A DNA stretch of 20,000 bases from an uncultured virus (IMG/VR IMGVR_UViG_3300020194_001970) (lineage: Duplodnaviria; Heunggongvirae; Uroviricota; Caudoviricetes): IMG/VR virus record IMGVR_UViG_3300020194_001970; one strand, 5' to 3'. This document shows, piece by piece, positions 1 through 19,400 of the stretch. A model generated the notes under the pieces. The model ran no database searches. It saw only the letters and a list, made by a program, of their open reading frames with translations, and was not told where the DNA came from. The position numbers were made by a program, and so were the translations under genes. Within the stretch, counting starts at the first letter, position 1. The number at the start of each line of letters is the position of its first letter.

Positions 1-2347
1 GTTGTCTTGCTCCTTTATCTTTCTGTAGTTGTGAAACTTGAGATTTAATGTTATGCCAACCACCTTTAGCATATTTATTGTCACTAGTTTGAACAAACAT
101 TTTAGCTTTAGGTAACCTAAGAACATTGCCGGAAGCCATAGCTTCTAAAGCAAAATTAGGAACAAATCCATCACTCATAATTTTAAATTTTGAAGGATTC
201 TTAGCTAAGTTTTGCAGTTGATTTCTATTGTAACCTTTATTTGATAAGTAATCAATTAATGGAGCTCCAAGATATTGTTGATTTGGATTTTGTTGAAACA
301 TCCTGAGTATCTCTTGGTCCCAGATATTTTTTGATTTTATGATTTGCGGTTGAGTGTTTTTATAGTTAAATTTAATGCCTTTATTTGCGGGGTCATTTAA
401 TGTGTCTTTTATTTTTTGTGCCCTACTTCTTGGGTCTATAAAGTTTGGAATAAATCCATCAAACATATAAGGATCAAAACCATGTTTATTTTCAAAGTCT
501 GATTGGTATTTTTTTCCAGCTTTACTTTTAAAAGGGGGAACAATAGCTTCTTGCTTCATTCCGGGGAATTTTTTTACTGATTCAGAACCATTATAAACAA
601 CTCTACCAACCCCATCAATATTCATGGATTTTACATTTCCCGGAACATATCCGGCTTTTAAGGCTGAATTTTTCTCTACCATCTTTTCCGTTTGGGAGAC
701 AGAAAAGTTTGGTATGTATCCTTCTGCAGCAGTTTTCTTTGGCGGTAATGTTAAGTCAGGATTAACGCCTTTCCTAACTAAACCTGGAGCTAGAGTTCCA
801 GCAATTCTTTGTTGTTGTTGAAGATATCGAGTTTGCTGTTTGATTACTTCAAGCATTACTTGTTCTTGCTTTGTTTTATCGTTGGCATATTTATTTAATT
901 CAACAGCTAGCTGTTTATTTTGAGACATAGCCATAACAATACTTTCTTGTATAGCTTTTTCTTTATCTTTAGCGCTAACAATTCCAAGAACATCCTTCAG
1001 AGAAGATTTTGCAAACTTTAGCGCATTAGTAAATAGTTTAGCGAAAACGCCAAAAACTAAAACCAGTCCTGGGCCAGTTAGAACACTCCCTATTCCACTA
1101 ACAAGGCCTTTGGCAAAATCAGCACCAATTCCTTCACTATCCTTACCAAATAAATCATTCAGACCTCCAGCTAGAGAGTTAACAGCATCCAAAACTTTGG
1201 ATATTCCTGGAGCCAAAGCTAAGTCTCCTAAATTTTTAGAAAGTTCTTGTATAGTTAAGGATGTTTGGGTAGCTAAAGAAGAAATTGTTTTTTGAAGTTG
1301 AGCATTCTTTTGTTGAGCTTGATCGGTTGCTTGTGAGGAAATTTGTGTTGCTTGCGCATACAAAGAATTCTCTCTATTCAAATCTTTTAATGCCGCTTTT
1401 AAAACGTTGATCTGGAAAACGCCACCAACTTGTTCTGCTACCGCAGCTTTCGTAGCAGAACCAAGAGTATCGTAAGCTTTAGATAAACTTTGCAAGACAG
1501 ATAAAGCTGGCAAAGTATTACCTCTAATATCTCTTACTGCAACACCAAGCTCTTCAAGCCTATCTAAAGTGCTGCTACGTTGAATACGAGTAAATATAGT
1601 TTTAAAACTATTACCAATAACCGCACCACCTCTAGCAGTGATTTGTTGAGCGGATGTAACTGCACCAACTAATTGGTCAAAATTAACACCAGCATCTTGA
1701 GCAACAGCTCCTGCTCGAGCAAGAGCATCGATAAGGTCATCAGCACTAACGGCAAATTTAACATCGACTGCAGCCAATTTGTTGATGATATTTGTAGTAG
1801 TCAACCCAGCATCAGCAAAACCATTTACCGCAGCAGTTAAACCTGAAACGGCATCAGCCGCTTTGATTCCAGTTAGTCGAGTTAAGATCAACGCATCATT
1901 AGTACGTTTTAAAGTTTCCTCCATACTTAAACCTTGACGTGAAAACTCCAATGCGGCTTCTGCTGCGACTTCCAAGCTTTGGGAGGTATTTCTGGCGACT
2001 TTAAATAAATCGTTACCAAATTTTTGTAGGTTAGTTAGGCTGGTATTTAAAACCACATTGATATCAGTTAATATTTTCTCAACTTTAATAGACTGAACCG
2101 TAAGCTCTTTGAAAGCAGTTACAACTGAACCAATGATAGCCGCTGAAGCTCCAAACGCTATAACACGAGCATTAGAAGCTTCTAAAGATTTAGTGAACTC
2201 ATCCGCCTTCTGTGTAATTCTACCGAGTGGTTGAGTGTAATCAGAAGATCTTATTTTTACATTAAGACCTCTACGATTAATTCTATTTACTACATCTTGA
2301 ATTGACTCATCGAGTCCAACTTGCTGTGTTTTAATATTAAGCGCCAT
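1..2347 (-). CDS. Phage tail tape measure protein, TP901 family (runs off left edge; at least 782 aa in window)
   Basis: Not in the ORF track because there is no stop in the window. Manual translation from ATG 2347: MALNIKTQQVGLDESIQ...ARNTSQSLEVAAEAALEFSRQGLSMEETLKRTNDALILTRLTG...INKLAAVDVKFAVSADDLIDALARAGAVAQDAGVNFDQLVGAVTSAQQITARGGAVIGNSFKTIFTRIQ, the typical TP901 TMP core. AAGGAATAAGGT SD-like sequence directly upstream. Frame is consistent at the spot-checked positions 721, 457 and 178. Confidence 0.92.
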   Translation of the reverse strand, partial: MALNIKTQQVGLDESIQDVVNRINRRGLNVKIRSSDYTQPLGRITQKADEFTKSLEASNARVIAFGASAAIIGSVVTAFKELTVQSIKVEKILTDINVVLNTSLTNLQKFGNDLFKVARNTSQSLEVAAEAALEFSRQGLSMEETLKRTNDALILTRLTGIKAADAVSGLTAAVNGFADAGLTTTNIINKLAAVDVKFAVSADDLIDALARAGAVAQDAGVNFDQLVGAVTSAQQITARGGAVIGNSFKTIFTRIQRSSTLDRLEELGVAVRDIRGNTLPALSVLQSLSKAYDTLGSATKAAVAEQVGGVFQINVLKAALKDLNRENSLYAQATQISSQATDQAQQKNAQLQKTISSLATQTSLTIQELSKNLGDLALAPGISKVLDAVNSLAGGLNDLFGKDSEGIGADFAKGLVSGIGSVLTGPGLVLVFGVFAKLFTNALKFAKSSLKDVLGIVSAKDKEKAIQESIVMAMSQNKQLAVELNKYANDKTKQEQVMLEVIKQQTRYLQQQQRIAGTLAPGLVRKGVNPDLTLPPKKTAAEGYIPNFSVSQTEKMVEKNSALKAGYVPGNVKSMNIDGVGRVVYNGSESVKKFPGMKQEAIVPPFKSKAGKKYQSDFENKHGFDPYMFDGFIPNFIDPRSRAQKIKDTLNDPANKGIKFNYKNTQPQIIKSKNIWDQEILRMFQQNPNQQYLGAPLIDYLSNKGYNRNQLQNLAKNPSKFKIMSDGFVPNFALEAMASGNVLRLPKAKMFVQTSDNKYAKGGWHNIKSQVSQLQKDKGARQ

Positions 2348-2349
2348 AC

Positions 2350-2369
2350 CTTATTCCTTTGGGAATAAG
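2350..2369 (-). promoter_or_regulatory. 8-bp perfect hairpin (CUUAUUCC-CAAA-GGAAUAAG on the mRNA) overlapping the TMP Shine-Dalgarno
   Basis: Plus strand CTTATTCC (2350-2357) TTTG GGAATAAG (2362-2369). The mRNA 3' arm is the purine-rich SD 2-10 nt before ATG 2347. Confidence 0.6.
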
Positions 2370-2374
2370 TACAC
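2370..2374 (-). promoter_or_regulatory. GTGTA motif (putative phage late promoter element) upstream of the TMP gene
   Basis: TACAC on plus strand in a 28-bp intergenic gap, 22 nt before the ATG. The same motif recurs in other gaps. Confidence 0.55.
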
Positions 2375-2375
2375 T

Positions 2376-3380
2376 TTATTTTGTTTTGTGTCCGCTTAAT
2401 TCCATTAAATCTTGCATAGAAAGTGAGCCGCCTTTTTTTTCGGCAGCTTCATGCAAAGACATTCTTGCCCCAGAATTTGGTTTTTCAAGCCCCGCATATT
2501 CATAGTCTTCTTGAGTTGCTCCAAACAATGTAGTTCCATCTTTATCTGAAGATAGTTGTTTTTGCATTTTCTCTTTAGCTTCATCACTAATGCTACCATA
2601 ATCCAATAAAGCTTGCGGATCTTTCTTTATTTTTTCTGGAATATGGCTGTTATTCTCAAATATATTTTTAAAAATTTTAGTATAAACAATTAACTTCAAT
2701 TGGTTATATGTTAAATGACAAACTGGATTACCAAAAAAACCAACTGTATCATCGCTAAATGGAAAATAAATATAGTAAAAATCTTGAAGAATCATTTCTT
2801 GTATTTTTAATTCTTCAAACATTTTAAATGTATCATTGTAGACTTGAATAAATTTAACTATATCTTCAGAGTATAATTCATCAAAATCTTCTTCATTAGG
2901 AAAAACAGCAGATTTTAATTCTCGATCATTAAAAAAACTTTTAATAACATAATGATCATTTGATCTTTTTTCGGAATAACTTTCAGCATTAACACCAACT
3001 AATGAATGCCTTTTTTCTTTTAACTCATTAATTTTTTTACGAGTTTCTTGAATAGTTTCATTTTGTTTGTCTATTTGAGATTTTAGAATTAATTCAGTTT
3101 TAGTTTTTTGGAGCTGCTCAATAAACTTTTCTTGCTTGATGATTTCATTTTCGTCTTTGTCCGACCAAATTCCTTGAGAATTTAGTTCTTTTAAAACTTC
3201 TTTTTCTGTGGGTATACCTCTGTTAATCGCAGATTTAAGATGCTTTTCTTTAATTTCATCAATATCTACTTGATCAAGAGCACTTAAGTGTTTGATGTAG
3301 AATTTAGTTTCGTCTATTGAAACTTCTGAATATCCTACAACAATATCTCGAAAGATTTTCCTGTAAGATGATATATCCAC
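2376..3380 (-). CDS. Putative tail assembly chaperone-like protein 2 (334 aa, GTG start)
   Basis: Long ORF immediately upstream of the TMP, in the chaperone position. Has a coiled-coil centre and is visibly paralogous to 3382-4230. The function call rests on synteny. Confidence 0.6.
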   Translation of the reverse strand: MDISSYRKIFRDIVVGYSEVSIDETKFYIKHLSALDQVDIDEIKEKHLKSAINRGIPTEKEVLKELNSQGIWSDKDENEIIKQEKFIEQLQKTKTELILKSQIDKQNETIQETRKKINELKEKRHSLVGVNAESYSEKRSNDHYVIKSFFNDRELKSAVFPNEEDFDELYSEDIVKFIQVYNDTFKMFEELKIQEMILQDFYYIYFPFSDDTVGFFGNPVCHLTYNQLKLIVYTKIFKNIFENNSHIPEKIKKDPQALLDYGSISDEAKEKMQKQLSSDKDGTTLFGATQEDYEYAGLEKPNSGARMSLHEAAEKKGGSLSMQDLMELSGHKTK

Positions 3381-3381
3381 A

Positions 3382-4230
3382 TTACAGGGTACCTTCTTCT
3401 ATATCTTTCTCTAAATCCTTGAAATCTTCTTCTGAAGAAGAGCTGCTGAAATACCAAAAACTAACAAAAGCAGTCAGTTTGTCGTAAACAATTGAGAGTA
3501 GATCATTTTCCTCTTCTTCCAGTTGGTAAAAGAATTCTTTTTTCTCATTGAAATCTGCTCCTTCAAAATATGGAACAAGCTTGTCATCTTTTTCAATGTA
3601 TGATAAATTTAATAAATACCAGGTAATTACTTTGTTTTGAGCTCGACTATCAGCGGTATGATTCAGGAGGGCGCTGAAGTTAGTTTCAGCTGTGGCAATA
3701 GCTTTACGTAATGTTGCCATTTGTTCAGAAACTTTTTTTCTTTTTTCTTCATTGCTTGGATTTTGAGCCTGCATATTTAATTGAGTGAACTCGGTTTGCA
3801 TTTCACCCAATTTACCATAAAGCTCTTTCAGCTTTTCTGCATCAGACTCACTAAGCATTCCGCCTGTATCAGAATACTTATTCATTAACATAGCTTTAGT
3901 GAGAACTCCTTGCTTGACACATTTACTCATTTCAATGCTATATTCCATGTCGGCCTCCTCCATTTGGCGGCGGGTGGGCTGTTTGATTACGAATGTATGT
4001 TCAACCTTATTTGTTTCAGTACGTTTTTCTTTAACGATCTGTTTTTCTTTAATCTTTCGTTTTTCTTTATCTTTATATTTTTCTTCGGTACCGTCTTCTT
4101 TTTGACGAGTTTTTTCTACCTCGATTTCTTTTTCGACTTCAATTTCTTTTTCGACATCGACTTCTTTTTCTTCTTCGACATCTTGAAAGACTTTAAAACG
4201 ATATATTTCTTTATTTGTTTTTGTATACAT
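3382..4230 (-). CDS. Putative tail assembly chaperone-like protein 1 (282 aa)
   Basis: Start revised from 4287 to ATG 4230 (MYTKTNKE...), which is preceded by AAAGGAACAAGGTA and avoids overlap with the upstream gene. Position two genes before the TMP; FVIKQPTRRQMEEA motif resembles chaperone N-termini. Confidence 0.6.
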   Translation of the reverse strand: MYTKTNKEIYRFKVFQDVEEEKEVDVEKEIEVEKEIEVEKTRQKEDGTEEKYKDKEKRKIKEKQIVKEKRTETNKVEHTFVIKQPTRRQMEEADMEYSIEMSKCVKQGVLTKAMLMNKYSDTGGMLSESDAEKLKELYGKLGEMQTEFTQLNMQAQNPSNEEKRKKVSEQMATLRKAIATAETNFSALLNHTADSRAQNKVITWYLLNLSYIEKDDKLVPYFEGADFNEKKEFFYQLEEEENDLLSIVYDKLTAFVSFWYFSSSSSEEDFKDLEKDIEEGTL

Positions 4231-4264
4231 TACCTTGTTCCTTTGGTTGTTAAATATTATAAAT

Positions 4265-4549
4265 TTATTTGAAATTAAATTCAACAATAAATTTTTCTAA
4301 ATCATTTTCAGACCCTCTGATTGATTCGTTTCCCATATCTAGTATTTTTTTGCGAAGATATTGCATTTTTTCTTCATCAAAGTAATTAGCTTGATTTAAT
4401 AGATTAGTATGCTCTGGGAGAGATTTTTTTAATTTATGAAAACAGATTTGGTTTTCTGTATATAGGTCTTCCATTAGAACCAAGAAGTTTTTAAATAAAC
4501 TTTTAGTGCTACCATTAAACCTGTCCGAAAGAAAATCTTTAGCTTCCAT
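4265..4549 (-). CDS. Hypothetical protein (94 aa), first gene of the leftward operon
   Basis: Start revised to ATG 4549 (MEAKDFLS...), preceded by AAAAGGTTTT. The GTG at 4576 used by the ORF track is the GTGTA motif itself. Confidence 0.7.
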   Translation of the reverse strand: MEAKDFLSDRFNGSTKSLFKNFLVLMEDLYTENQICFHKLKKSLPEHTNLLNQANYFDEEKMQYLRKKILDMGNESIRGSENDLEKFIVEFNFK

Positions 4550-4571
4550 AAAACCTTTTACCAACAAATAG

Positions 4572-4596
4572 TACACAAATTATTGGTTTACGTGTA
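4572..4596. promoter_or_regulatory. Back-to-back GTGTA motifs (TACAC-N15-GTGTA), putative divergent promoters
   Basis: TACAC at 4572-4576 points to ATG 4549 (minus) and GTGTA at 4592-4596 points to ATG 4606 (plus), within the 56-bp divergent spacer. Confidence 0.6.
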
Positions 4597-5065: not shown

Positions 5066-5668
5066 ATGTTTGCACAAAAACCAAACAAGAATAAAATCAG
5101 GGCATTAATTGATCTTAGGAGATCGCCTGAATATATTTTGGGTGTTAAAAAAATCATAAATCAAGAGTTTGATGCAATTAAAAATAATTTTATATCTGAA
5201 TTTAACAACCATCCTGTGACCAGAGAAATAGAAGCGGGAGTAGGATCTGCTAATATATCTGGAACGCTAGGTGGATACGGAAATCTTTTTTCTTATATAG
5301 GTTTTAGTGCAGGTGATAAACCAATTCAAAATATTAGAAATAAATTTAATGAAATATTTATAACAAATGTAAATATAAAAAAAGATGGTTCGTCTATTGT
5401 TTTTGTCTCTTACCCTCAACCAAAAGATATTTTTGCAGTTACCCCATTACCTTGGGCAGAGGGAAGAAGTTGGGCAGAGGGTATAGAGCTGGGTCTTCCT
5501 GGATTTGGTTCTTACTTAAATACTGAAACTTCAAAAAGTAGGTCTGGACAAGGTATTCAAATAAAAAATAGTGTAAGAAGGGGTAAATTTCAAAATACAT
5601 CTTATATAACAAAGTTAATTAGAAATTTTGAAAAACAAATTATCAATTTAAACAGAAGTACATTTTAA
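5066..5668 (+). CDS. Putative neck / tail-completion protein (200 aa)
   Basis: Basic protein lying between the head-closure and terminator candidates, as for HK97 gp10-like proteins. Translationally coupled to its neighbours. Function is from synteny only. Confidence 0.45.
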   Translation: MFAQKPNKNKIRALIDLRRSPEYILGVKKIINQEFDAIKNNFISEFNNHPVTREIEAGVGSANISGTLGGYGNLFSYIGFSAGDKPIQNIRNKFNEIFITNVNIKKDGSSIVFVSYPQPKDIFAVTPLPWAEGRSWAEGIELGLPGFGSYLNTETSKSRSGQGIQIKNSVRRGKFQNTSYITKLIRNFEKQIINLNRSTF

Positions 5669-6765
5669 TGAAGCCGCAATTCCAACATCAAATTATAACC
5701 AGCTTCGCACTTTGGATTGATCATATTATTTTACAGAGAGGGGAAGCTTTTCAAAATATAGATGCTTCGTTTTATCTTCAAGATGACCCTAGACTAGATC
5801 CCGAATTTATATCTTTCGCGTCTCCACACAAACAGTGGGTTACGGATTCTTCAATTAAAGGCGCTGAAGTTATTAAAGGAATAACTCTGGATGGACAATA
5901 TATCGAAAAAAATAAAGAAGGTATTAGATATGACTATAACAATGGAAGAGTAGTTATTCCACGTTTAATAGCAAATGAATCTTCAAGAGTTGAAGGTGTA
6001 TACTCTGTTAAAGATTTTAATATTTATATAACAGATCAAACTGAAGAAGAATTATTAATTGAAACTAAATTTGATAAAAATAGTAGATTCGACCAGGAAG
6101 TTGATGGAGGTGTTAAGCCTTATGACCAGGTAGTACCCGCAATATTTGTTTCTTACGAAGAAGGATTTAATGCTCCATTTGCTTTTGGTGGTGAAGATAC
6201 AACTAACTCTATGATTCGATGTGTTGTTTTTTCAGAAAGCTCATACCAGTTAGATGGAGTTTTTTCCATATTAAAAGATTTAAATAATATTGCTATATCG
6301 AACGTAGGATTTGATGAACATCCATTGAATGAATTTGGGGACTTGAAGTATGGAATTTATGACTATAAAGACTTAAGTGATAGATATTATAATATAAAAA
6401 ATAGCCAAAGCATATTTCATGTAAATCAAGTTACTGTTTCAAAACTGAATGATAAAGTAGCTAAAAAAAGCCACCCTGGATTATATATAGGGTTCGTTGA
6501 TTTTAAAATTAATAGTTATAGGTTTCCTCGAGCCGAGCTTGTTGAGCCTGTTGCTATTAGACCTCCAAATGTACCGCTGGCGCCTGTGTCTCCGTTTAAT
6601 TTGCAGCTGGCACCACAGCTACCTTTAAGCCCTGAAAAATTAACGTTAAACGATAAGCCATTGGCTCCAGAAAAACTAATATTAAACCAAGAGCCTTTAG
6701 CTCCTGAGTCCTTAAAATTTAACGAAAAACCATTGTCTCCCGAGAGATTAACTTTAGTAGAATAA
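5668..6765 (+). CDS. Putative tail terminator-like protein with C-terminal Pro-rich repeat array (365 aa)
   Basis: TAATG overlap with the upstream gene. The C-terminal half (VVPAIFVSYEEGFNAPFAFGG...IRCVVFSESSYQLDGVFSILKD...YIGFVDFKI) follows the tail-terminator pattern, and the gene lies before the tube genes. Confidence 0.55.
   Translation: MKPQFQHQIITSFALWIDHIILQRGEAFQNIDASFYLQDDPRLDPEFISFASPHKQWVTDSSIKGAEVIKGITLDGQYIEKNKEGIRYDYNNGRVVIPRLIANESSRVEGVYSVKDFNIYITDQTEEELLIETKFDKNSRFDQEVDGGVKPYDQVVPAIFVSYEEGFNAPFAFGGEDTTNSMIRCVVFSESSYQLDGVFSILKDLNNIAISNVGFDEHPLNEFGDLKYGIYDYKDLSDRYYNIKNSQSIFHVNQVTVSKLNDKVAKKSHPGLYIGFVDFKINSYRFPRAELVEPVAIRPPNVPLAPVSPFNLQLAPQLPLSPEKLTLNDKPLAPEKLILNQEPLAPESLKFNEKPLSPERLTLVE
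6580..6762 (+). repeat. Five 12-13-aa repeats P-[LV]-[AS]-P-x-x-L-x-[LF] (about 36-bp period)
   Basis: APVSPFNLQLAPQ / LPLSPEKLTLND / KPLAPEKLILNQ / EPLAPESLKFNE / KPLSPERLTLVE-stop. Confidence 0.85.
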
Positions 6766-6791
6766 AAAAATATATATTTTATTATAAATAA

Positions 6792-6796
6792 GTGTA
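6792..6796 (+). promoter_or_regulatory. GTGTA motif upstream of the 6811 gene
   Basis: In a 45-bp intergenic gap, 14 nt before the ATG. Confidence 0.55.
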
Positions 6797-6810
6797 ACTA
6801 TTAAAATATC

Positions 6811-8643
6811 ATGGAAGAAGAGCCAAAAAGTACGAATTTTAAAGTAATATATAGATTTGAGCATGTCAATAAATTTCCTCATTTAGCGGATTATTACAAT
6901 ATATATAGACAAGATGGGGATAGCCAATTCGTTCATATAGATACTATACAAGCTACAGGATTATCAGAAGACGATCAACCTCTAGAGATTACAGGTTTTG
7001 ATATTGTTCCAAATTGTGGTGTTACTTATAATTATAAAGTTAGCGCTTATAATGATCGCGGTGAAATTGATTGTATTAATCCAACTTTTTCTGGAGTTGA
7101 TTTTATATGTCCAACAGCAAGCCCAACTCCTACTCCAACTAATACGATTACCCCTACTCCCAGTGCATCTGTTACTCCTAGTGCATCTATTACTCCTTCT
7201 GTTACCCCAACAAGCACTGTTACTCCAACAAGCACAGTTACCCCAACAAGCACAGTTACCCCAACAAGCACATTAACACCAACTAATACGGTTACTCCAA
7301 CAATCAGCCAAACACCAGCAGCTTCACAATCACCTACTCCGACAGCGACACCGACCAATACAATAACACCAACTACCACAGTTACTCCAAGTGTTACCCC
7401 AACGAATACGGTAACTCCAACAAATAGCCAAACACCAGCAGCTTCACGATCACCTACTCCTACAGCTACACCAACCAATACAGTAACGCCAACTAATACG
7501 GTTACTCCAAGTGTTACTCCAAGTATTACAGTTACTCCAACAAGTAGTCAAACACCAGCAGCTTCACAATCACCTACTCCGACAGTGACACCAACCAATA
7601 CAGTAACACCAACTAATACAGTTACTCCAAGTGTTACTCCAAGTGTTACCCCAACGAATACGGTAACTCCAACAAGCAGTCAAACACCAGGAGCTTCACG
7701 ATCACCTACTCCGACAGCGACACCAACCAATACAGTAACGCCAACTAATACAGTTACTCCAAGTGTTACTCCAACTAATACAGTGACTCCGACAAGTAGT
7801 CAAACACCGCCAGCTTCACAATCACCTACTCCGACAGCGACACCAACCAATACAGTAACGCCAACCAATACGGTTACTCCAAGTGTTACTCCAAGTATTA
7901 CAGTTACTCCAACAAGTAGTCAAACACCGCCAGCTTCACAATCACCTACTCCGACAGCGACACCAACTAACACTGCAACTCCTACTCTTACTCCTACCCC
8001 ATCAACTTCACCGCCAGAAGCTCAAGGGCCTCAGCAATTTGTAATAGAAATAGATAAAGGTAGTGACACATTCGGAAACGTAGCTAGAGCTGCAACGAAT
8101 ACAACTTTAACAAATACAACATCATCATCTAATTTAAGCTGGGCGAATGCACCACAAGGAGCGACAAGCTTGAGTTTGATTGGTTTTAGTGACGGAGGAT
8201 CATGGAATACTACAAATTTCACATTCTCTCCAAATACTGAAGGTAAAGCTGAATCTCTATTTGGAGGTTTTGCGGCAGAAGGTTCAACTTTCTTTAATCA
8301 GCCTGCTTGGGCGCAAAGAAAGGTTGATGCTTCCCCCCAAGGATTTAATCTTTTGACTCCAGATTCAACATCTACATCAGTTATACCTAACTTTTTTGAT
8401 AGCACAAATACCACAAAAGGATTGTTTGATTTTGGTTTATTTCAATGCTCAGATTCAACGTGTAGCGATGGGTCTAGAGCTGAATCAATTAACTCAAGCA
8501 ATAATGCTCCAATTGCTTTTTGGGTTAAAATGGCTAACGATGCTACTACAGATGGAACTACAAGTCCAGGTAACGATGTAGATAGTAGTATCGGGACGAC
8601 TCCATTTACGATTAGGGTTACTGGTCAATGGAATTTTGATTAA
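6811..8643 (+). CDS. Putative virion decoration protein: FN3-like N-domain, about 300-aa Thr/Ser/Pro stalk, C-terminal beta domain (610 aa)
   Basis: ADYYNIYRQ and TYNYKVSAYNDRGE are FN3 C- and F-strand signatures, followed by a long TPT repeat. Located within the tail module. Confidence 0.7.
   Translation: MEEEPKSTNFKVIYRFEHVNKFPHLADYYNIYRQDGDSQFVHIDTIQATGLSEDDQPLEITGFDIVPNCGVTYNYKVSAYNDRGEIDCINPTFSGVDFICPTASPTPTPTNTITPTPSASVTPSASITPSVTPTSTVTPTSTVTPTSTVTPTSTLTPTNTVTPTISQTPAASQSPTPTATPTNTITPTTTVTPSVTPTNTVTPTNSQTPAASRSPTPTATPTNTVTPTNTVTPSVTPSITVTPTSSQTPAASQSPTPTVTPTNTVTPTNTVTPSVTPSVTPTNTVTPTSSQTPGASRSPTPTATPTNTVTPTNTVTPSVTPTNTVTPTSSQTPPASQSPTPTATPTNTVTPTNTVTPSVTPSITVTPTSSQTPPASQSPTPTATPTNTATPTLTPTPSTSPPEAQGPQQFVIEIDKGSDTFGNVARAATNTTLTNTTSSSNLSWANAPQGATSLSLIGFSDGGSWNTTNFTFSPNTEGKAESLFGGFAAEGSTFFNQPAWAQRKVDASPQGFNLLTPDSTSTSVIPNFFDSTNTTKGLFDFGLFQCSDSTCSDGSRAESINSSNNAPIAFWVKMANDATTDGTTSPGNDVDSSIGTTPFTIRVTGQWNFD
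7111..8015 (+). repeat. Coding Thr/Pro repeat with 18-bp basic unit and six higher-order units of about 120 bp
   Basis: The CAAACACC(A/G) anchor (SQTP.AS.SPTPT) occurs at 7309, 7429, 7549, 7681, 7801 and 7921, giving periods of 120, 120, 132, 120 and 120. Confidence 0.92.
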
Positions 8644-8712: not shown

Positions 8713-10245
8713 ATGAGTACATTACCAGCAAGAAATAGAGTTATTTATCAAAGTGAAGCCCTGTTTGTATCACCAGACTGCACAGGACACCATGTTTTTT
8801 ACGAACCAAAGGTACAATCTGATTGTATAATTTCAGGAAATGGTGCAGGAGGGGCTTCGGACAAAATTTTCTTTGATGCTTGTTTAGGTTTATCTTCAAG
8901 AGATAGTTTGTTTACAACATCTACTGGCTGGGTTTATACTACATTTGAAAGTGAAGATGCAAGCGATTTGGGCGAATTTCATCCAGTTCTAGAGCGAGCT
9001 GGAATTGTAGACGAATTAAGTATACAAGGGAATGCTAATACTTTAGATCACTTAAAAAGCAAAGACAGAATTGAGGGGTCTTGGGGCACTGCTGTCCAAC
9101 AGTTAAAAAGAGTTCAGAATGCTAATTACAGTTTTACAATTAATAGGCAAGACGTTAACCAATTTGGTCAATTAGGTAGAATTGACTCTGTGGTTTTGGA
9201 GGCTCCTACAGTTAGCTTAGACTTTTCTTATTACCTAACTGATGGAGAAAATGAAAGATTGTTGGGAATGAACACAGATGCAAGTGTTCAAAGTTTGTCT
9301 GGAATAATGACTAGAGCTCAAAATGATTTTGGTAATAACTTTTTCATTTTAACAGTGCCAGAAGGTAGAGATGCAGTAGAGGGAGATTTATTGACAGATA
9401 ATGCAATTCAGTCAGTCATTGGCTTAGGAAATGCATACATTACGGATTACAGTATTGAAGCTAGCGTGGGATCTTTCCCAACAGCAAGTGTCACCGTTGA
9501 GGGTTTAAATATTAAATCAGACAAAGGTACTCAATGGAAATCAATTCCAGCGGTAGACCCAGAAAACGGAACTAATATTTGTGACATTAAATTCTTTTTA
9601 CCTCCGGCAGAAACAGGTCAAGGAACAAGTATTTTAAAGCCTGGAGATATTAGTATTAATTTAAGAAATTCATCTCTGATATCTAAACAAATTTCTGGAA
9701 CCGATTTATCTTATTCAATTGATGACGAAGGTAGCGCTCATATTCAAAGCTTTTCATTATCAACACCAATGGGTAGGACTGATTTACAAAGAATTGGCAA
9801 CACATATTCTTACGCAAAAGAATTAGACTTCCCAGTCACGGCTTCGTTAACTGTAAACGCTTTAGTAGCAGACTTAAAAGAAGGTAATTTAGTAAGCTTG
9901 CTATGTGGTAAAGAATACGATATTTCTATCTCAATTCAACACCCACAATGTATCGAATGTGAACCCAATAATTCCGAGAAAGCTATTTCAATAGATTTCA
10001 GGGGGGCTCTACTTGATTCTGAATCATTTAGTTCTGCCATTGGAGATAATAAATCTGTAGACTTGACATTTTCTACTCAAATTGGCGGCCCAGAACAACA
10101 AGGTGTTGGAGTATTCTTTAGTGGATTTGAAAATGCACAAGGTGCAGATGGAAAATATAAACAATCACCAAATATTAAGAGTGGTAAATACCATAAATAC
10201 GGAGAGATTGGAACAACTGGAGGTTTTGCTCCAGGTAGATATTAA
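8713..10245 (+). CDS. Putative major tail tube protein with internally duplicated tube domain (510 aa)
   Basis: Tube-like beta motifs occur twice (VQNANYSFTINRQDVNQFGQ...PTVSLDFSY and IQSFSLSTPMGRTDLQRIGN...PVTASLTVN). The gene has its own upstream GTGTA motif and a strong downstream terminator, consistent with high expression. Confidence 0.7.
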   Translation: MSTLPARNRVIYQSEALFVSPDCTGHHVFYEPKVQSDCIISGNGAGGASDKIFFDACLGLSSRDSLFTTSTGWVYTTFESEDASDLGEFHPVLERAGIVDELSIQGNANTLDHLKSKDRIEGSWGTAVQQLKRVQNANYSFTINRQDVNQFGQLGRIDSVVLEAPTVSLDFSYYLTDGENERLLGMNTDASVQSLSGIMTRAQNDFGNNFFILTVPEGRDAVEGDLLTDNAIQSVIGLGNAYITDYSIEASVGSFPTASVTVEGLNIKSDKGTQWKSIPAVDPENGTNICDIKFFLPPAETGQGTSILKPGDISINLRNSSLISKQISGTDLSYSIDDEGSAHIQSFSLSTPMGRTDLQRIGNTYSYAKELDFPVTASLTVNALVADLKEGNLVSLLCGKEYDISISIQHPQCIECEPNNSEKAISIDFRGALLDSESFSSAIGDNKSVDLTFSTQIGGPEQQGVGVFFSGFENAQGADGKYKQSPNIKSGKYHKYGEIGTTGGFAPGRY

Positions 10246-10320: not shown

Positions 10321-13300
10321 ATGAGGAATTTTTTAAGATCGGAATCGGCATCTCTTTTTGTGGGTCCTGCACCAGCATATCAACCGCATATATATGAAGG
10401 TAGATCTGCTATAAGAAGATTATTTAAAATTCAGTCAATTGATTATGGTTTCGATATAAATAGAGAAGATATAAAAATAATAGGCGAGGAGGATTTATTA
10501 ACAAGAGGAGTAAACTTTACAACAATAAATCCAAATCCTGGAAGTAATATAGATGTAAACATAGAGCCAGTGCCCGTAAATTTTAATTTTTCTTATTTAC
10601 AAACATGCGGTTTTAATGAATGGCTTTTGAATTTTAATGTTATACCTCAAGGAGGGGTTGCAGAAAATAGTTTTATATCTAGACATTTCGGAGACAAAAA
10701 CTTCTTTGTGTTAATAAATAAAACTCAATATGAGGGAGCATCTAATCTTGTTGAGGAAAAAGATTTTAAGGGGCATTATGTGTTAGGTATAGGTAATGCA
10801 TTTGTTACTAGATATTCAGTAAGCACAACCGTTAAAAACTTTGTTCAATGTGATTTAGAATATCAAGCATCAAATATAACTTTAGATAAATATGGAGATG
10901 ATAACTATATACCAGCTATACATTTATATGATGGAAAGTATAAAAAAGAGCATAAATATATATTAGAAGACTTAGAAAATTACAAAACTAACGAGGAATA
11001 TTACGAGCCAGTTATATCTAATAATATATCTATAGAAATGGATGCATTAAATGTCCCAGTTTTAGAAACCAGTAAAGCTAGTGCTAATGCGGTATCATTT
11101 AATATTAACTTAGATATTCCGAGGAGGAATTTATATGGATTTGGGTCTATGTATCCATATGACAGAAAAATGGATCTACCAATAAGGGGGTCCTTAGATT
11201 TAGATATTTTAATCAAGGATTTTCAAACTGGAAATTTAAATCAGATATTAAAAGAAGAAAAATTTTACGACATTAGAATGCATTGCGACACTAAATTTTG
11301 CGATGACAATAGAGCTCCGTCCGTACAATATATAATACAGAATGCAGTATTAAAAAATCAATCATCTAACCTAAGTTGGAATGAATTCTCTACAGCAAAA
11401 TTAAGCTTTGATTTCACCGTAACAAGAAATCATGGATTTATGTTTAGTGGAGGTTGTATGGACTCTCAAATAGCTACTAATAGCAATGAGGGTCAAGCAT
11501 TTGCTGAAGGAGCTCTATCTTCTTCTGATCCGCCTGGAACGATATTTCCTAACCCTTGGATTATGCCTGTTACACCTAGCATCACGCCAAGTATTACACC
11601 AACAATATCTATTACTCCAACAATTTCAGTAACACCTTCAATAACGCCAACCATAACCGTAACTTCTTCCAGTACTCCACCTGTAAGTCCAACAGCAACA
11701 TATAGCTCAACAGTAACTCCAAGTATAACAAGTACGATCACACCAACAAGCACAGTTACTCCTACAGTTACCCCAACAAGTACAGTTACCCCTACGAGTA
11801 CGACTACTCCAACAAGCACAGTAACTCCTACAGTAACACCAACCAGTACAGTTACCCCAACAAGTACAGTTACTCCAACAAGCACAGTTACTCCAACAAG
11901 CACAGTTACTCCAACAAGCACTATCACCCCAACAAGCACGGTTACTCCAACAAGTACTATCACCCCAACAAGCACGGTTACTCCAACAAGTACAGTTACT
12001 CCAACAAGTACAGTTACTCCTACGAGCACACTTACTCCCACAAGTACAGTTACTCCTACAAGCACACAGTTACCCCAACAATATCAATTACCCCAACAAG
12101 TACAGTTACTCCAACAAGCACAGCTACTCCTACGAACACGATCACCCCAACAAATACAGTTACTCCAACCACAATAATATACGATTTAAATGTAAGATTC
12201 CAAGAGGATTCTCTGTATATTTTAGAAGGACAAACAAAAAGTTTGAGAGTTTACAGAGATTTAAATTCTAATGTTCCTTATTTAGGTCAGTTTAAAATTA
12301 ATTACAAGATTGATTCAGAACCAAATTCTGCAATTTCAGGGATAGACTTTGAAGGAAAAACTGGAGAATTAATATTTAATCAAGGAGAGAATCATAAAGA
12401 TATTGAAATTACAGTATTAACAGACAACGAATACGAAAAAGCTGAAATATTTAATGTAGAAATTGAAGTTGTATACCCCCAATTTACTGTAGGTAAAATT
12501 TTAAGTAATAACCCATTTAAAGTTTTAGTTGTAGAAGTAGAACCAACTCCAACACAAACCGCCACGCCATCAATAACTCCTACAAACACAGTTACTCCTA
12601 CGAGCACGATTACTCCAACAATATCGGTTACCCCAACAAGCACAATCACACCAACAAGCACAATCACACCAACAAGCACAGTTACTCCTACGAGTACGAT
12701 TACTCCAACAATATCAGTTACTCCAACTATAACACCAACAAGCACAGCTACTCCTACAAGTACGATTACTCCTACAAGTACGATTACTCCTACGAGTACG
12801 ATTACTCCAACAATATCAGTTACTCCAACTATATCGGTTACTCCATCAGTTACAATAACTCCAACAAACACAGTTACCCCAACAAGTACGATTACTCCTA
12901 CAAGTACGATTACTCCTACAAGTACGATTACTCCAACAAACACAGTTACTCCCACAAGCACGGTTACTCCAACAATATCAGTTACTCCGACAAGTACAGT
13001 TACCCCAACAATATCAGTTACTCCAACTACATCAGTTAGTGTGACCCCTAGCGTTACACCAACCCCATCAATACAAAATATTCAATATATTAGATTTAAA
13101 ACTAATTCATTAAGTGTACAAGAGGGCTCTTCATTTAAAGTTTATATAGAAAGAGATATAACAAAGTCAACCAATCCATTTGTGTCTTTTAGTGTAGATT
13201 ATAGAACAATAACAGGAACAGCTATCAGTCCAGATGATTACATACATACCCAAGGAACACTTACATTTAACAAAGACGAACATGAAAAAAGTTTTGAAGT

Positions 13301-13445
13301 GCATACGTTACCAAATCCAGGATTAGCAAATTTTGAATCTTCTGAATATTTTATGGTTAATATATTTAATGCATTCACAACAAATGGCAGAGTAATTATA
13401 GATGGTGGAGACACGAACCCGATAATTATTACAGAAACTCCTTAG
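10321..13445 (+). CDS. Tail tube paralog fused to Thr/Pro stalk - Calx-beta - Thr/Pro stalk - Calx-beta (about 1040 aa after repairing a 2-bp frameshift near 12064-12068; joins ORFs 10321-12177 and 12243-13445)
   Basis: The N-terminal ~390 aa aligns by eye with the 8713 protein (VLGIGNAFVTRYSV vs VIGLGNAYITDYSI; KNFFVLI vs NNFFILT). An extra CA in AGCACACAGTT shifts the repeat frame. The alternative frame from 12069 reads VTPTISITPT...YDLNVRFQEDSLYILEGQTKSLRVYR into the 12243 ORF. Calx-beta signatures: GIDFEGKTGELIFNQGENHKDIEITVLTDNEYEKAEIFNVEI and VDYRTITGTAISPDDYIHTQGTLTFNKDEHEKSFEV. Confidence 0.75.
11566..12172 (+). repeat. Coding 18-bp tandem repeat (STVTPT)n
   Basis: Degenerate AGYACAGTTACTCCAACA units, continuing across the frameshift. 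Confidence 0.92.
12541..13070 (+). repeat. Coding 18-bp tandem repeat (STITPT/ISVTPT)n between the two Calx-beta domains
   Basis: Directly visible degenerate 18-bp units. Confidence 0.92.
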
Positions 13446-16400: not shown

Positions 16401-19400
16401 ATATATTAGGAGACTCTGTTGAATTTGAGCCAGACAATAAGCCAGCTAATAGTTGCTGGTATGGATTTACCGATATATACCTAGATGAGATTAAAGGTAA
16501 TGTAAATATTGAATCAATGGCTTCAGATCAGGATATAGATGGTTTTTTACTGTATAAAGGAGGAATGTCCACTCTTTATAAAGAAGTAGAAAGTTATCCA
16601 ATAACAATAAAAAAGGAACAAATACCTAGAGTATATAAAGAAAATTGGAACCAGGGAGCGAAACCACTATTTAAAGATGAGGAAGATTTCACAATTCAAA
16701 CATGGGTTAATTTTGAAGATTTAAATAAAAAACATTTAATAATAAAGGCCGGAATTTTTGAAAAGAGTTTAGACTTGGGGTGGCAACTTAAGAGGTTAGG
16801 AGTTCAAGAAATTGAAGAAATGACAAGCTACCTGCTTGAGAATATTCAATTAGTTTCAAATAATTATTATTCAGAAACCGGAGAAAATGAAGAATTTATT
16901 GTTAATTTGCAAAAAAATAATTATCCATTAACTGCAAGCTCTGATGGTGCATTTTATGCTAATTATGGAACATACAACAATCAAACACAAGAATACCCAA
17001 AAACAAAAATATATCAGATATCGCAAGAAGAAATAAATGAAATAAAAAACTTCTATAAAAATGCATTTTATTTTGATTTGGTTGGAGTAGATCATTGGTA
17101 CGCACATCTTGATCGTTTTGGAATACCTCAGGTTAACAATATATTCTCTGGCAAAAGTGCTGCATATATGTGGGGATACATTCCTAGAATAAAGACAAAA
17201 ATGAAATATAGATTTTTGTTTTTCTCGCAATTAGATCTTGAGGATGATAATTGGTACCATATAGCTTTGACCAGAAAAAATTCAACAAATTTTAGATGAT
17301 AATTGGTACCATATAGCTTTGACCAGAAAAAATTCAACAAATTTTAAAATGTATATTAATGGCGCTCCAAGCTCTAGTTTTCAGTTCACTTCTTCAAGCA
17401 GAATAAAAGTGGGTGGAGTAAATGATATAGCCTCTGGGGATAAAATTGATGAGTTTACATACCTTGATGGTATATACGATCAAATAAAAAACCCAGTAGA
17501 CAATAATCCTGAACATTACGGAGATTATGTAACTGCTAAGTACTGGAGAGGTTTAGATTGTCTAGGTTTATTGGAATCAAAAATAAGTGACAAATGGAAA
17601 ACACACGCTAACTTACCTTATGTTCGAATTGGGGGTTCACCTAGAGACTCAATGACTGAGTTAGATATTAACAAAAACATAGAAGACGGTCTACAAGGTG
17701 ATGATATTTATGCTAATAGAAATTATGGAAAATTTAAAATACAAGATTTTTCTATATTCAGAGATCAAGCTTTAGAGGCGGGTAACTTTTATCAAAATAA
17801 AATTTTTGAATCTAATTGCCCCTTAATTTGTCCAACACTTCAAATACAAAGTAATTCGGCTGCCCAAGGAAATCAAATAAATGATTTAAGTTTAGAGGGT
17901 AATGAAATAGAAAATATAGGAAATGTTTATCACGATGAAACTCAAGGTATAATAAGAAGTTCCAGTTTATATTTTGATGGAAATAGTTATTTAACTTCTT
18001 CTTTTTTTGAGGATAAAATTATAGAAGATAGTAGTTTTACTTTTAGCTTCTTTTTTAGACAAAAAAATCAAATGAAAGCCATATTAAATGGAGAAATTTT
18101 TGCTCAATCTTTGTTTGATTTTAGGGACAAAACCAGTGATGAAGAAAAATTTGTAGTATCTATATTGTCAGATTATCATGAAACCTGGGACCCTGGAAAA
18201 ATATATGAACAGAACACTTTGGTTTTTAGGTCTGGTAAATATTTTATACTCGAAAGTTCAAATTCTTTCAATCAAGATCCTATAGATGAGGAGATAACAT
18301 CATGGAAGGAAATTGATCCGGAGCCTGGTAAATTTTATATATCTATTCATAAAGGAGATATATTTACCCCTTTAATACAAACAGAAGTAAAATTTAATTC
18401 AAATGAAAATCATCATGTAGGAGTAGTCAAGAATGAGGATATATTAGAGTTATATATTAATGGTTCATTAATTAGCTATGTAAATGCTGTAGGGATATTC
18501 GCGGGAACAATAAACAATATAACAATTGGAAAAGATAAATCATTGGAGTCTGCATCTCAATTTAATGGACACATGCAAGACATTAGGTTAATATATGAAG
18601 CAGAAAAATTCTCGTTAATGCCAAATGCACTAACGACTTTATGTAACTCAGAAATAAGAATTCCCGAATGTCAAAATGTTAATCTTCATATACAGTCTCA
18701 TGCAGACCATGAAGAAGTTAATGGTGTTTTTGATTTTAGTAAAAATAATCTAGAGATAAAAGTAATAAATGAAGAACAGAATATTGAAAGTTTGCATGAT
18801 ACTGGAAGTCCAATATATTCTGATAGCTCTTTGAATTTTAATGGTAGTAGGTATTATGAAATAAATAGAAACGATTTATTAAGATTAAACGAAAGCTTTA
18901 CCATTGAGTTTTCTATTATTTTTAATACCCTACCACGACAATTATTCGATGATGAAGATTTAATTTTTAACGAAAGACATACGATCATAAGTCACGGAAG
19001 CAGAGATAATGTATCAAAAAATATAGGTTGGGAAATAGCGATAATCGGAGGAGAAATAAAATTTTACTATAACGAAGAAGGTGTTGAGGAAGAATTTTGG
19101 TTGAATGTAATCAACTTAACTCCAGAAGATGGAATTGAAAATAATAAAATTTATCACTTTGCCGTTGTAAGGAGTTTTGGGATTGGTTTTGGGTTGGTTG
19201 ATGGCTCGTTAGTTTCAGTGCATAATTTTGGGCAAAAAGTAATACAGTATCCAAATGTTAAAATTAACATTGGACTGTCTTTGGAAAAGTTGGGTCCAGG
19301 AACGATAGATATACTACAAAAAAATGAAGTGCCTGGAATAACTGAGGCTGGAGTTTTAAAAAGTTATATAAATGCAAACATTCAGGATATAAGAATATGC

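Follow-up and report, generated by a model that had tools for sequence, protein, structure and literature searches.

In pilins, the strand that is missing from the fold is the C-terminal G strand. Among other systems in which a short element serves for docking, cohesin-dockerin scaffoldins recruit several cargo proteins through tandem short docking sites and SpyTag is a strand split off from an immunoglobulin-like (Ig-like) domain, and Ig-like or fibronectin type III (FN3) decorations are carried in cis by phage tail proteins such as SPP1 gp17.1* and lambda gpV. Strand swapping and fragment complementation have reportedly been obtained with engineered FN3 domains in work attributed to Luo et al. 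(2014) and Dutta et al. (2005). The Tencon FN3 dimer (PDB 4m6a) is described as a case of N-terminal strand swapping in an engineered FN3. Here we analyzed a stretch of 20 kb (33.5% G+C; IMG/VR record IMGVR_UViG_3300020194_001970; "the window" below means this whole stretch) from the structural module of an uncultured marine phage, in which a 365-amino-acid (aa) protein of tail-terminator type ends in five repeats resembling strand A of FN3 domains, and the next gene encodes a 610-aa protein that starts with an FN3-like domain predicted to lack this very strand. A previous reading of the DNA, made from sequence only, had proposed that the repeats complete the domain in trans by donor-strand docking. 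As a whole that interpretation was partly supported by our analysis, and we consider strand-complementation docking of the terminator tail with the FN3 domain of the 610-aa protein the best reading of the locus, with a probability of about 0.6.

In this model, one FN3 domain would be split between two adjacent genes. The terminator, as a ring capping the head-proximal end of the tail tube, would offer through its flexible C-terminal tail five strand-A signatures of the form P-x-[AS]-P-x-x-L-x-L, and the 610-aa protein, starting at strand B, would present an ABE sheet with an open edge. A tail motif would then insert beside strand B as the missing strand A, with the hydrophobic residues at its positions +1, +3 and +5 turned into the core, and the completed FN3 would tether the 610-aa protein (the FN3 socket, a 300-residue T/P/S stalk and a 210-residue distal domain) at the head-tail junction. 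This would amount to a plug-and-socket mounting of fibres on the neck, and each subunit, having five motifs, could bear several fibres.

The array of five P[LV][AS]PxxLx[LF] repeats that the sequence-only reading had placed at the end of the 365-aa protein was borne out by a strict pattern search, by shuffling and by a scan of the whole window. The strict pattern, P[LVI][AS]P..[LF].[LF], matched the 365-aa protein five times, with starts at residues 306, 319, 331, 343 and 355 (nt 6583-6756) and a spacing of 13, 12, 12 and 12 residues, and it was found in none of the other 12 long open reading frame (ORF) products of the window. Five matches were reached in 0 of 100,000 shuffles of the 70-residue tail. 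At the DNA level, Tandem Repeats Finder recognized a 36-nt unit in no more than 2.3 copies (72% matches), and the repeat is therefore kept at the protein level. The 72 tail-bearing homologs contained 206 motif copies, with 1 to 5 copies per tail and 2 to 5 copies in 61 of them; the aligned tails of relatives had 2 to 5 copies as well. For motif 1, P306 and P309 were invariant in 30 aligned tails and L312 was nearly invariant. Positions outside the search pattern were also constrained among the 206 copies, with P at position -3 in 78% and A, S or P at position -1 in 80%. The tail-less relatives were 281 to 304 aa long and ended in ...RFPR[ST].

The gene that follows (6811-8643) had been said to begin directly with FKVIYRFEH, and the sequence indeed reads as quoted, with a stop codon just upstream of the ATG at 6811, which lies 9 residues ahead of FN3 strand B. 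Many homologs of this N-terminal domain (N-domain) begin with M-x-Y-K-V, straight at strand B. The AlphaFold2 (AF2) model of residues 1-104, calculated from a 34-sequence alignment, had a predicted local distance difference test (pLDDT) score of 88.6 and six main strands, with strands at residues 10-18, 28-35, 41-47, 58-66, 72-81, 84-86 and 92-97 and low confidence for residues 1-9. An exhaustive structural search with this model returned FN3 domains throughout (Z 7.4-9.2), and the top Foldseek matches were FN3 as well, with weak E-values. The model was further compared with that of a homolog, P0063, which carries terminator and FN3 domain in one chain and is described below. For the 14 PDB chains matched by both models at the same FN3, the alignment of the N-domain begins 12-17 residues later than that of the cis domain (2ic2_B, 477 versus 464; 2xyc_A, 508 versus 493; 3uto_A, 19 versus 5; 4n68_A, 888 versus 874; 5x83_C, 738 versus 723), so that the N-domain appears to be without strand A and the A-B loop, with nothing else missing. 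According to these models the N-domain is an FN3 fold minus strand A, with an open sheet edge; the expectation that it would not form a complete seven-stranded sandwich thus agrees both with the six main strands of the AF2 model and with the absence of the first 12-17 residues of the aligned FN3 domains. A phmmer search with residues 1-102 found the multi-FN3 proteins P0133, P0134 and P0137 at E-values of 5e-13 to 3e-11, in which Pfam finds 7-12 fn3 stretches, and a scan of genome contigs yielded weak cellular FN3 matches only.

Two other origins of strand A were considered and rejected. A longer N-terminus that would supply the strand was rejected, because the in-frame TAA 6 nt before the ATG does not allow the 610-aa ORF to extend 5' and residues 1-9 are modelled with low confidence. 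A fusion of the 365- and 610-aa genes by read-through or frameshift was rejected because two in-frame TAA codons lie between them and the relative frames are mixed in relatives: among the 45 paired loci, the gap was 22-69 nt and the relative frame was 0, 1 and 2 in 16, 17 and 12 loci, respectively.

Terminator and FN3 domain also occur in naturally fused forms. In 12 of the 120 homologs listed (P0049, P0060-P0068, P0070 and P0072), the terminator core, a single motif and an FN3 domain homologous to the N-domain of the 610-aa protein were found in one chain. In the AF2 model of P0063 (pLDDT 82.6), the motif forms a beta strand at residues 317-324, after which come strands that correspond to B, C, C', E, F and G. 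Residues 309-428 of this model superposed on whole solved FN3 domains with Z of 10-11.6 and root-mean-square deviations of 2.3-2.7 A, covering 103 residues on the 105-residue 7y5r_A and 99 on the 100-residue 6x39_A, and the modelled cis domain forms the seven-strand FN3 sandwich (ABE + C'CFG). The motif is thus modelled as acting as strand A of a complete FN3 in cis in the fused homologs. A profile of the cis FN3 with 120 positions was tiled without overlap by the two proteins of the window, positions 3-21 by terminator tail residues 300-318 (the motif 1 stretch; a weak match of 3.6 bits) and positions 25-120 by N-domain residues 8-100 (E 5.8e-24). A fold search of BFVD with the fused model gave mostly generic FN3-bearing tail proteins.

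The two proteins also appear to vary together at the proposed contact. Strand B has the form Y-S-F-x-H, in which F is invariant and core-facing and x is the only variable outward-facing residue, and motif positions +1, +3 and +5 are hydrophobic; if strands A and B pair in antiparallel fashion with L(+3) across from F, position +2 would come to lie directly across from x. Motif position +2 tracks x, Cys going with Cys and acidic residues with Lys. Among the 45 paired loci, x is Cys only in L068 and L075, and there 7 of 9 motif matches have Cys at +2 (the same position in 4 of 4 motifs of L075 and in 3 of 4 motifs of L068), in comparison to 0 of 153 motif copies at any other x, a few of the counted copies being spurious matches just upstream of motif 1. 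Cys within tail repeats was likewise confined to these two loci among the 45; outside this set, Cys-bearing tails were also seen in P0006, P0007, P0009 and P0015, the last of which has its Cys at +4. An acidic residue at +2 was present in 10 of 19 copies where x is Lys (5 loci), in 17 of 108 copies where x is neutral and in 0 of 26 copies where x is Asp or Glu. In the window itself x is Glu, and three of the five motifs have K, K and R at +2, while in L001, a close relative of the window, x is Lys and E, E are found at +2. The same change in nearly all copies of a tail and in the partner strand B would be difficult to account for if not every copy came into contact with strand B, and this covariation between the proteins adds indirect support for a contact.

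The label "terminator-like" that had been given to the 365-aa protein (whole gene, 5668-6765, plus strand) was confirmed by fold comparison, with Z of 10-11 to solved terminators. The fold was measured on the AF2 model of the fused homolog P0063, which is 53% identical to the window protein, and not on the window protein itself. Residues 4-297 of P0063 matched the T5 terminator p142 (8bcp_C) with Z 10.9 and 143 aligned residues of a 159-residue chain, the phage Mu terminator 9khy_1 with Z 10.8, the phiCD508 neck protein 9gb5_H with Z 11.0, and the diffocin and pyocin R2 collars with Z 10.2 and 10.0, respectively; 2gjv was also matched (Z within 10.0-11.0), and Foldseek with the same model additionally gave a 272-residue chain of the T4 portal-neck-tail complex. 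By sequence, the 365-aa protein had no Pfam or PHROG match and nothing meaningful was found in the PDB. The next gene in 21 of 21 distinct tail-less loci encodes a homolog of the tube protein at 8713-10245, and the tube gene comes directly after the terminator in the tail-less and fused relatives with a visible downstream gene, so that the terminator identity fits a gene order of terminator then tube. On the strength of the model comparison we take the 365-aa protein to be the tail terminator, which in the virion would form a hexameric ring capping the tube. This terminator family is described as common to siphophages, myophages and tailocins (bioRxiv 10.1101/2024.10.16.618446).

To see how the tail motifs and the FN3 gene are distributed, 192 related loci from IMG/VR and metagenome contigs were classified by script, and the co-occurrence set consisted of the 66 distinct loci in which the terminator gene was complete and the gene downstream of it could be seen. 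A gene that begins at FN3 strand B (FN3-first gene below) was located 22-69 nt downstream in 43 of 43 distinct motif-tail loci, 30 of them with repeats only and 13 with repeats plus an extra beta domain ending in VYVPC. The FN3-first gene was found in 0 of 21 tail-less loci and 0 of 2 fused loci, where the tube gene follows directly, and it was likewise missing within 3 kb of the terminator in another 57 distinct tail-less IMG/VR loci. When the N-domain was used as the query in the reverse direction, the same 12 tail-bearing IMG/VR contigs and no others came up. One seeming exception, L034, fits as well, with an FN3-first gene encoding 94 aa in between its terminator and tube genes. The array and the FN3 gene without strand A are thus gained or lost together, as had been anticipated (43 of 43 versus 0 of 21, 0 of 57 and 0 of 2). 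In the tree of terminator cores the tail-less forms make up one clade, the fused L074 falls inside the split clade, and for the fused L033 the branching at the base of the clade with tails is unresolved, placements from which fusion or fission may have occurred more than once. This interleaving of fused and split forms suggests that the motif and the B-G domain function as a single unit in both arrangements.

Several variants of the two proteins were observed among the relatives. Many terminator homologs of 452-760 aa (for example P0024 and P0030, and L003, L008, L009 and L012) have three or four motifs and then a beta-rich domain, about 110 residues long, that has VYVPC at its end and into which the last motif runs straight; P0030, which is of this type, had no Pfam match, and L009 (760 aa) adds sequence with FN3-like hallmarks after the VYVPC domain. 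In a sub-lineage made up of L076, L077 and L080, two motifs are followed by a distinct ending (...DSDYMKAWKETF...), and the FN3-first protein has a T/P-rich N-terminal extension ahead of strand B (…EVQYLNWRVFFNFKH). In three loci (L034:2703-2987, L085:3663-3947 and L094:2011-2295), the FN3-first protein is a bare 94-aa FN3 without strand A, stalk or distal domain, and the terminators there are very long, at 659-762 aa. From these bare versions it follows that the joint between FN3 and motif, not the cargo, is the conserved feature.

A number of points weigh against docking by strand complementation. The motif is modelled as strand A in cis, so that docking in trans would be an extension of what the fused chain suggests, and that the 610-aa protein is a virion component is likewise something we infer. 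The match of the tail to the cis-FN3 profile is weak, at 3.6 bits, and neither protein of the pair reaches Pfam fn3 (PF00041), which gave no match for the 610-aa protein, its first 102 residues, P0063 or P0049, even at E <= 1. AF2 folds the domain confidently on its own, without strand A (pLDDT 88.6), and six strands may be enough for a stable sandwich. The co-occurrence is perfect and yet phylogenetically shallow, with two or three independent changes at most: the tree of terminator cores shows only 2 state changes (2 independent pairs, sign test p 0.5), and since the end of the tail and the start of the FN3 are less than 70 nt apart, linkage alone would keep both together. As for the covariation, the register that sets +2 across from x is argued from side-chain alternation rather than from coordinates. 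L068 and L075 belong, together with the lineage of the window, to one unresolved 5-row clade of the N-domain tree (support 88), and their Cys state may therefore go back to one event; the extra Cys of strand B could also form a pair within the domain, with a third Cys that is often present there. The charges match only in part: a basic residue at +2 is lacking in 5 of the 6 loci with Asp or Glu as x.

The explanation that survives best besides strand complementation is that the motifs are duplicated remnants of an ancestral cis strand A and now serve as a proline-rich spacer or bind something else, with the six-strand FN3 self-sufficient and the 610-aa protein attached via another surface. The confident fold of the isolated domain would suit it, descent and adjacency would explain the co-occurrence, and the 452-760-aa variants, whose last motif enters a different beta domain, indicate that motifs can precede domains in cis. 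Against these stand the retention of P..P..L.L in every copy while the linkers between copies vary, the Cys shared by nearly all motifs of L068 and L075 together with the partner Cys of strand B, and the position of the gene boundary, which falls in the A-B loop in 45 of 45 paired loci; we therefore regard this explanation as unlikely, if worth keeping in mind. It is still less probable that strand complementation takes place at one motif per tail, for example the first, the others being spacers or spares and no multivalent scaffold being formed. Motif 1 is the best conserved copy and the one that aligns with the cis strand A, one motif suffices in the fused forms, and crowding by the 300-residue stalks may limit occupancy; however, 2-5 copies are kept in 61 of 72 tails, and in the Cys lineages the change extends to nearly all copies and not to one. 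It is very improbable that the 610-aa protein, encoded next to the terminator by chance in one phage clade, is a fibre or adhesin of its own with a mounting site elsewhere, or a non-virion protein, for although the stalked proteins at 10321-13445 are built on a tube paralog, so that the phage attaches stalks in other ways too, the natural fusions of the terminator with this FN3 domain, the covariation between the two proteins and the bare 94-aa versions that still lie right after the terminator gene without any cargo all speak against it.

Within the reading by strand complementation, which and how many motifs are used and what the stoichiometry of the ring would be can be put forward in tentative terms. 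It is plausible that several motifs, or even all five, are occupied, because tails have kept their copy number and the Cys change extends to nearly every copy, and each repeat would then carry one copy of the 610-aa protein, as the sequence-only reading had it. The full version of such a multivalent donor-strand scaffold, with five motifs bearing one fibre each, up to 30 mucin-like fibres per hexameric ring, and joints locked by a disulfide from +2 to strand B in lineages of the L068/L075 type, is a speculative proposal that we hold to be rather doubtful.

Table 1. Positions of the two proposed partners of the joint and of the tail tube gene in the window, with the basis of each assignment.
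Feature	Position	Strand	Basis
Core of 365-aa protein, residues 1-295, predicted tail-terminator fold with insertions	5668..6552	+	AF2 model of homolog P0063
C-terminal tail, residues 296-365, five strand-A-like motifs	6553..6762	+	absent in tail-less relatives
Motif 1 PVSPFNLQL, residues 306-314	6583..6609	+	pattern match
Motif 2 PLSPEKLTL, residues 319-327	6622..6648	+	pattern match
Motif 3 PLAPEKLIL, residues 331-339	6658..6684	+	pattern match
Motif 4 PLAPESLKF, residues 343-351	6694..6720	+	pattern match
Motif 5 PLSPERLTL, residues 355-363	6730..6756	+	pattern match
Intergenic spacer, 45 nt, with second in-frame TAA	6766..6810	+	sequence
N-terminal FN3-like domain, predicted to be without strand A, residues 1-100 of 610-aa protein	6811..7110	+	AF2, structure and profile matches
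Predicted strand B of FN3-like domain, residues 10-18	6838..6864	+	AF2
T/P/S-rich mucin-like stalk, 300 residues	7111..8010	+	T 37%, P 21%, S 14%
C-terminal domain of 610-aa protein, 210 residues, no recognisable family	8011..8643	+	no Pfam match
Tail tube protein (510 aa)	8713..10245	+	ESM Atlas neighbours: Phage_tube_2, Phi812_tail_tube, Baseplate_Tube_p140

The remainder of the 610-aa protein gave little functional information: the stalk matched PHROG 15511 (function unknown), and for the C-terminal domain of 210 residues no Pfam match was found and the best ESM Atlas score of 0.82 was uninformative. On the plus strand, the ORFs of the window are, in order, 152, 200, 365, 610, 510, 618, 400, 1282 and >894 aa long. 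The tape-measure protein is encoded on the minus strand, where PF10145 and several tape-measure PHROGs were matched, and three small ORFs come before it (103, 301 and 334 aa; the protein of 301 aa is very E/K-rich); this block (2-4576, minus strand) is divergent from the terminator-tube block, which runs from 4606 onward on the plus strand, an unusual split of the tail module. Two paralogous large tube proteins come after the terminator (8713-10245 and 10321-12177), the 618-aa protein of the second ORF being a paralog of the 510-aa tube protein (27% identity, E 1e-24), and the ESM Atlas neighbours of the pair include T5 p140-type families. The tube may be T5-like, with two different subunit types, one of them bearing a stalk.

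In the region 10321-13445, the 618-aa ORF (tube paralog and T/P stalk) is followed by a 400-aa ORF (Calx-beta, T/P stalk, Calx-beta). The two look like one gene split by a frameshift near 12065 within the T/P-coding repeats; the frame of the downstream ORF continues the stalk and leads into the N-terminal portion that the first Calx-beta lacks. The break may reflect misassembly of the repeats, or else a programmed frameshift by which some tube subunits gain display domains. Further downstream, a perfect 52-nt tandem duplication (17243-17294 and 17295-17346), whose length is not a multiple of three, makes the stop that divides the 1282-aa ORF from the >894-aa ORF; both are rich in Laminin_G_3, the peptide TRKNSTNF occurs at the end of one and at the start of the other, and a single ORF of >2150 aa would result without the duplication, which may be an assembly artefact or a real disruption. 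Long antisense ORFs of V/G/L repeats lie opposite the T/P-coding stalks (7047-7478, 11493-12065 and 12392-12961, all on the minus strand); they are by-products of repeat composition, not genes. A tblastn search of GenBank phages (50,697 records) gave no match for the 365-aa protein, the first 102 aa of the 610-aa protein or the 510-aa protein. In public metagenomes, 624 relatives of the 365-aa protein were found at E <= 0.001, on contigs of up to about 217 kb, and the phage therefore belongs to an abundant uncultured marine group.

If strand complementation holds, phages would have a new way to mount accessory fibres, with neither a dedicated binding domain nor a covalent fusion, in which the joint is a domain cut in two and the smaller piece has been multiplied into a docking array. 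It could help explain the mucin-like stalks on the necks of abundant uncultured marine phages and would yield a small pair of peptide and domain, of natural origin, for use in protein display; for experiments, the variants without a tail and those that are split, fused or Cys-bearing represent ready-made natural controls. By title and start of abstract, in a coverage that leaves most subscription journals outside, no description of a split FN3 or of donor-strand docking in a phage virion was found.

In comparison with terminators of the T5 p142, Mu and lambda gpU type, the 365-aa protein is alike in its predicted fold (Z 10-11) and in its position just upstream of the tube gene, while its core is about twice the size of p142 (about 295 versus 159 residues), it has the C-terminal motif tail in addition, and there is no sequence-family match. 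T4 Hoc and T5 pb10 are reported to place Ig-like or FN3 modules on the virion surface via flexible extensions, much as is proposed here; the Ig-like domain of Hoc, pb10, gp17.1* and gpV, however, is complete and attached by a separate binding domain or by covalent fusion, whereas here the FN3 itself would be the joint. The likeness to chaperone-usher pili and, reportedly, to TasA fibres (PMC9674648) lies in an Ig-like sandwich without an edge strand that is completed in trans by an alternating-hydrophobic peptide of another polypeptide, a docking that is only proposed for the present locus, where the AF2 model has the features of an acceptor, namely an Ig-like fold, a missing strand A and an open sheet edge. 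In contrast to the pili, where a pilin lacks its C-terminal G strand, the strand missing here would be the N-terminal A strand of an FN3, the proposed donors are arranged in tandem on another protein, the tail terminator, and there is no chaperone, usher or head-to-tail polymer; none of the 13 window proteins had a chaperone, usher or pilin Pfam match. As a phage structural module with these differences, the pair is not a member of the chaperone-usher pathway and would rather work like donor-strand complementation, a principle of bacterial pili and matrix fibres that, if the proposal is true, would apply to the assembly of virions as well, and to strand A at the N-terminus of FN3. The engineered FN3 swaps agree with the proposal in that strand A can come from another chain and split FN3 halves can reassemble, and differ from it in being laboratory constructs or crystal dimers, in comparison to a natural two-gene split with multiple donor copies. 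With cohesin-dockerin and SpyTag/SpyCatcher the docking array is alike, while the folds and the chemistry differ and no isopeptide is involved here. By analogy, the Cys-bearing lineages might be locked covalently by a disulfide in a manner comparable to SpyTag/SpyCatcher, and a multivalent, disulfide-locked version, if true, would be a natural and repeated counterpart of engineered split-domain tags.

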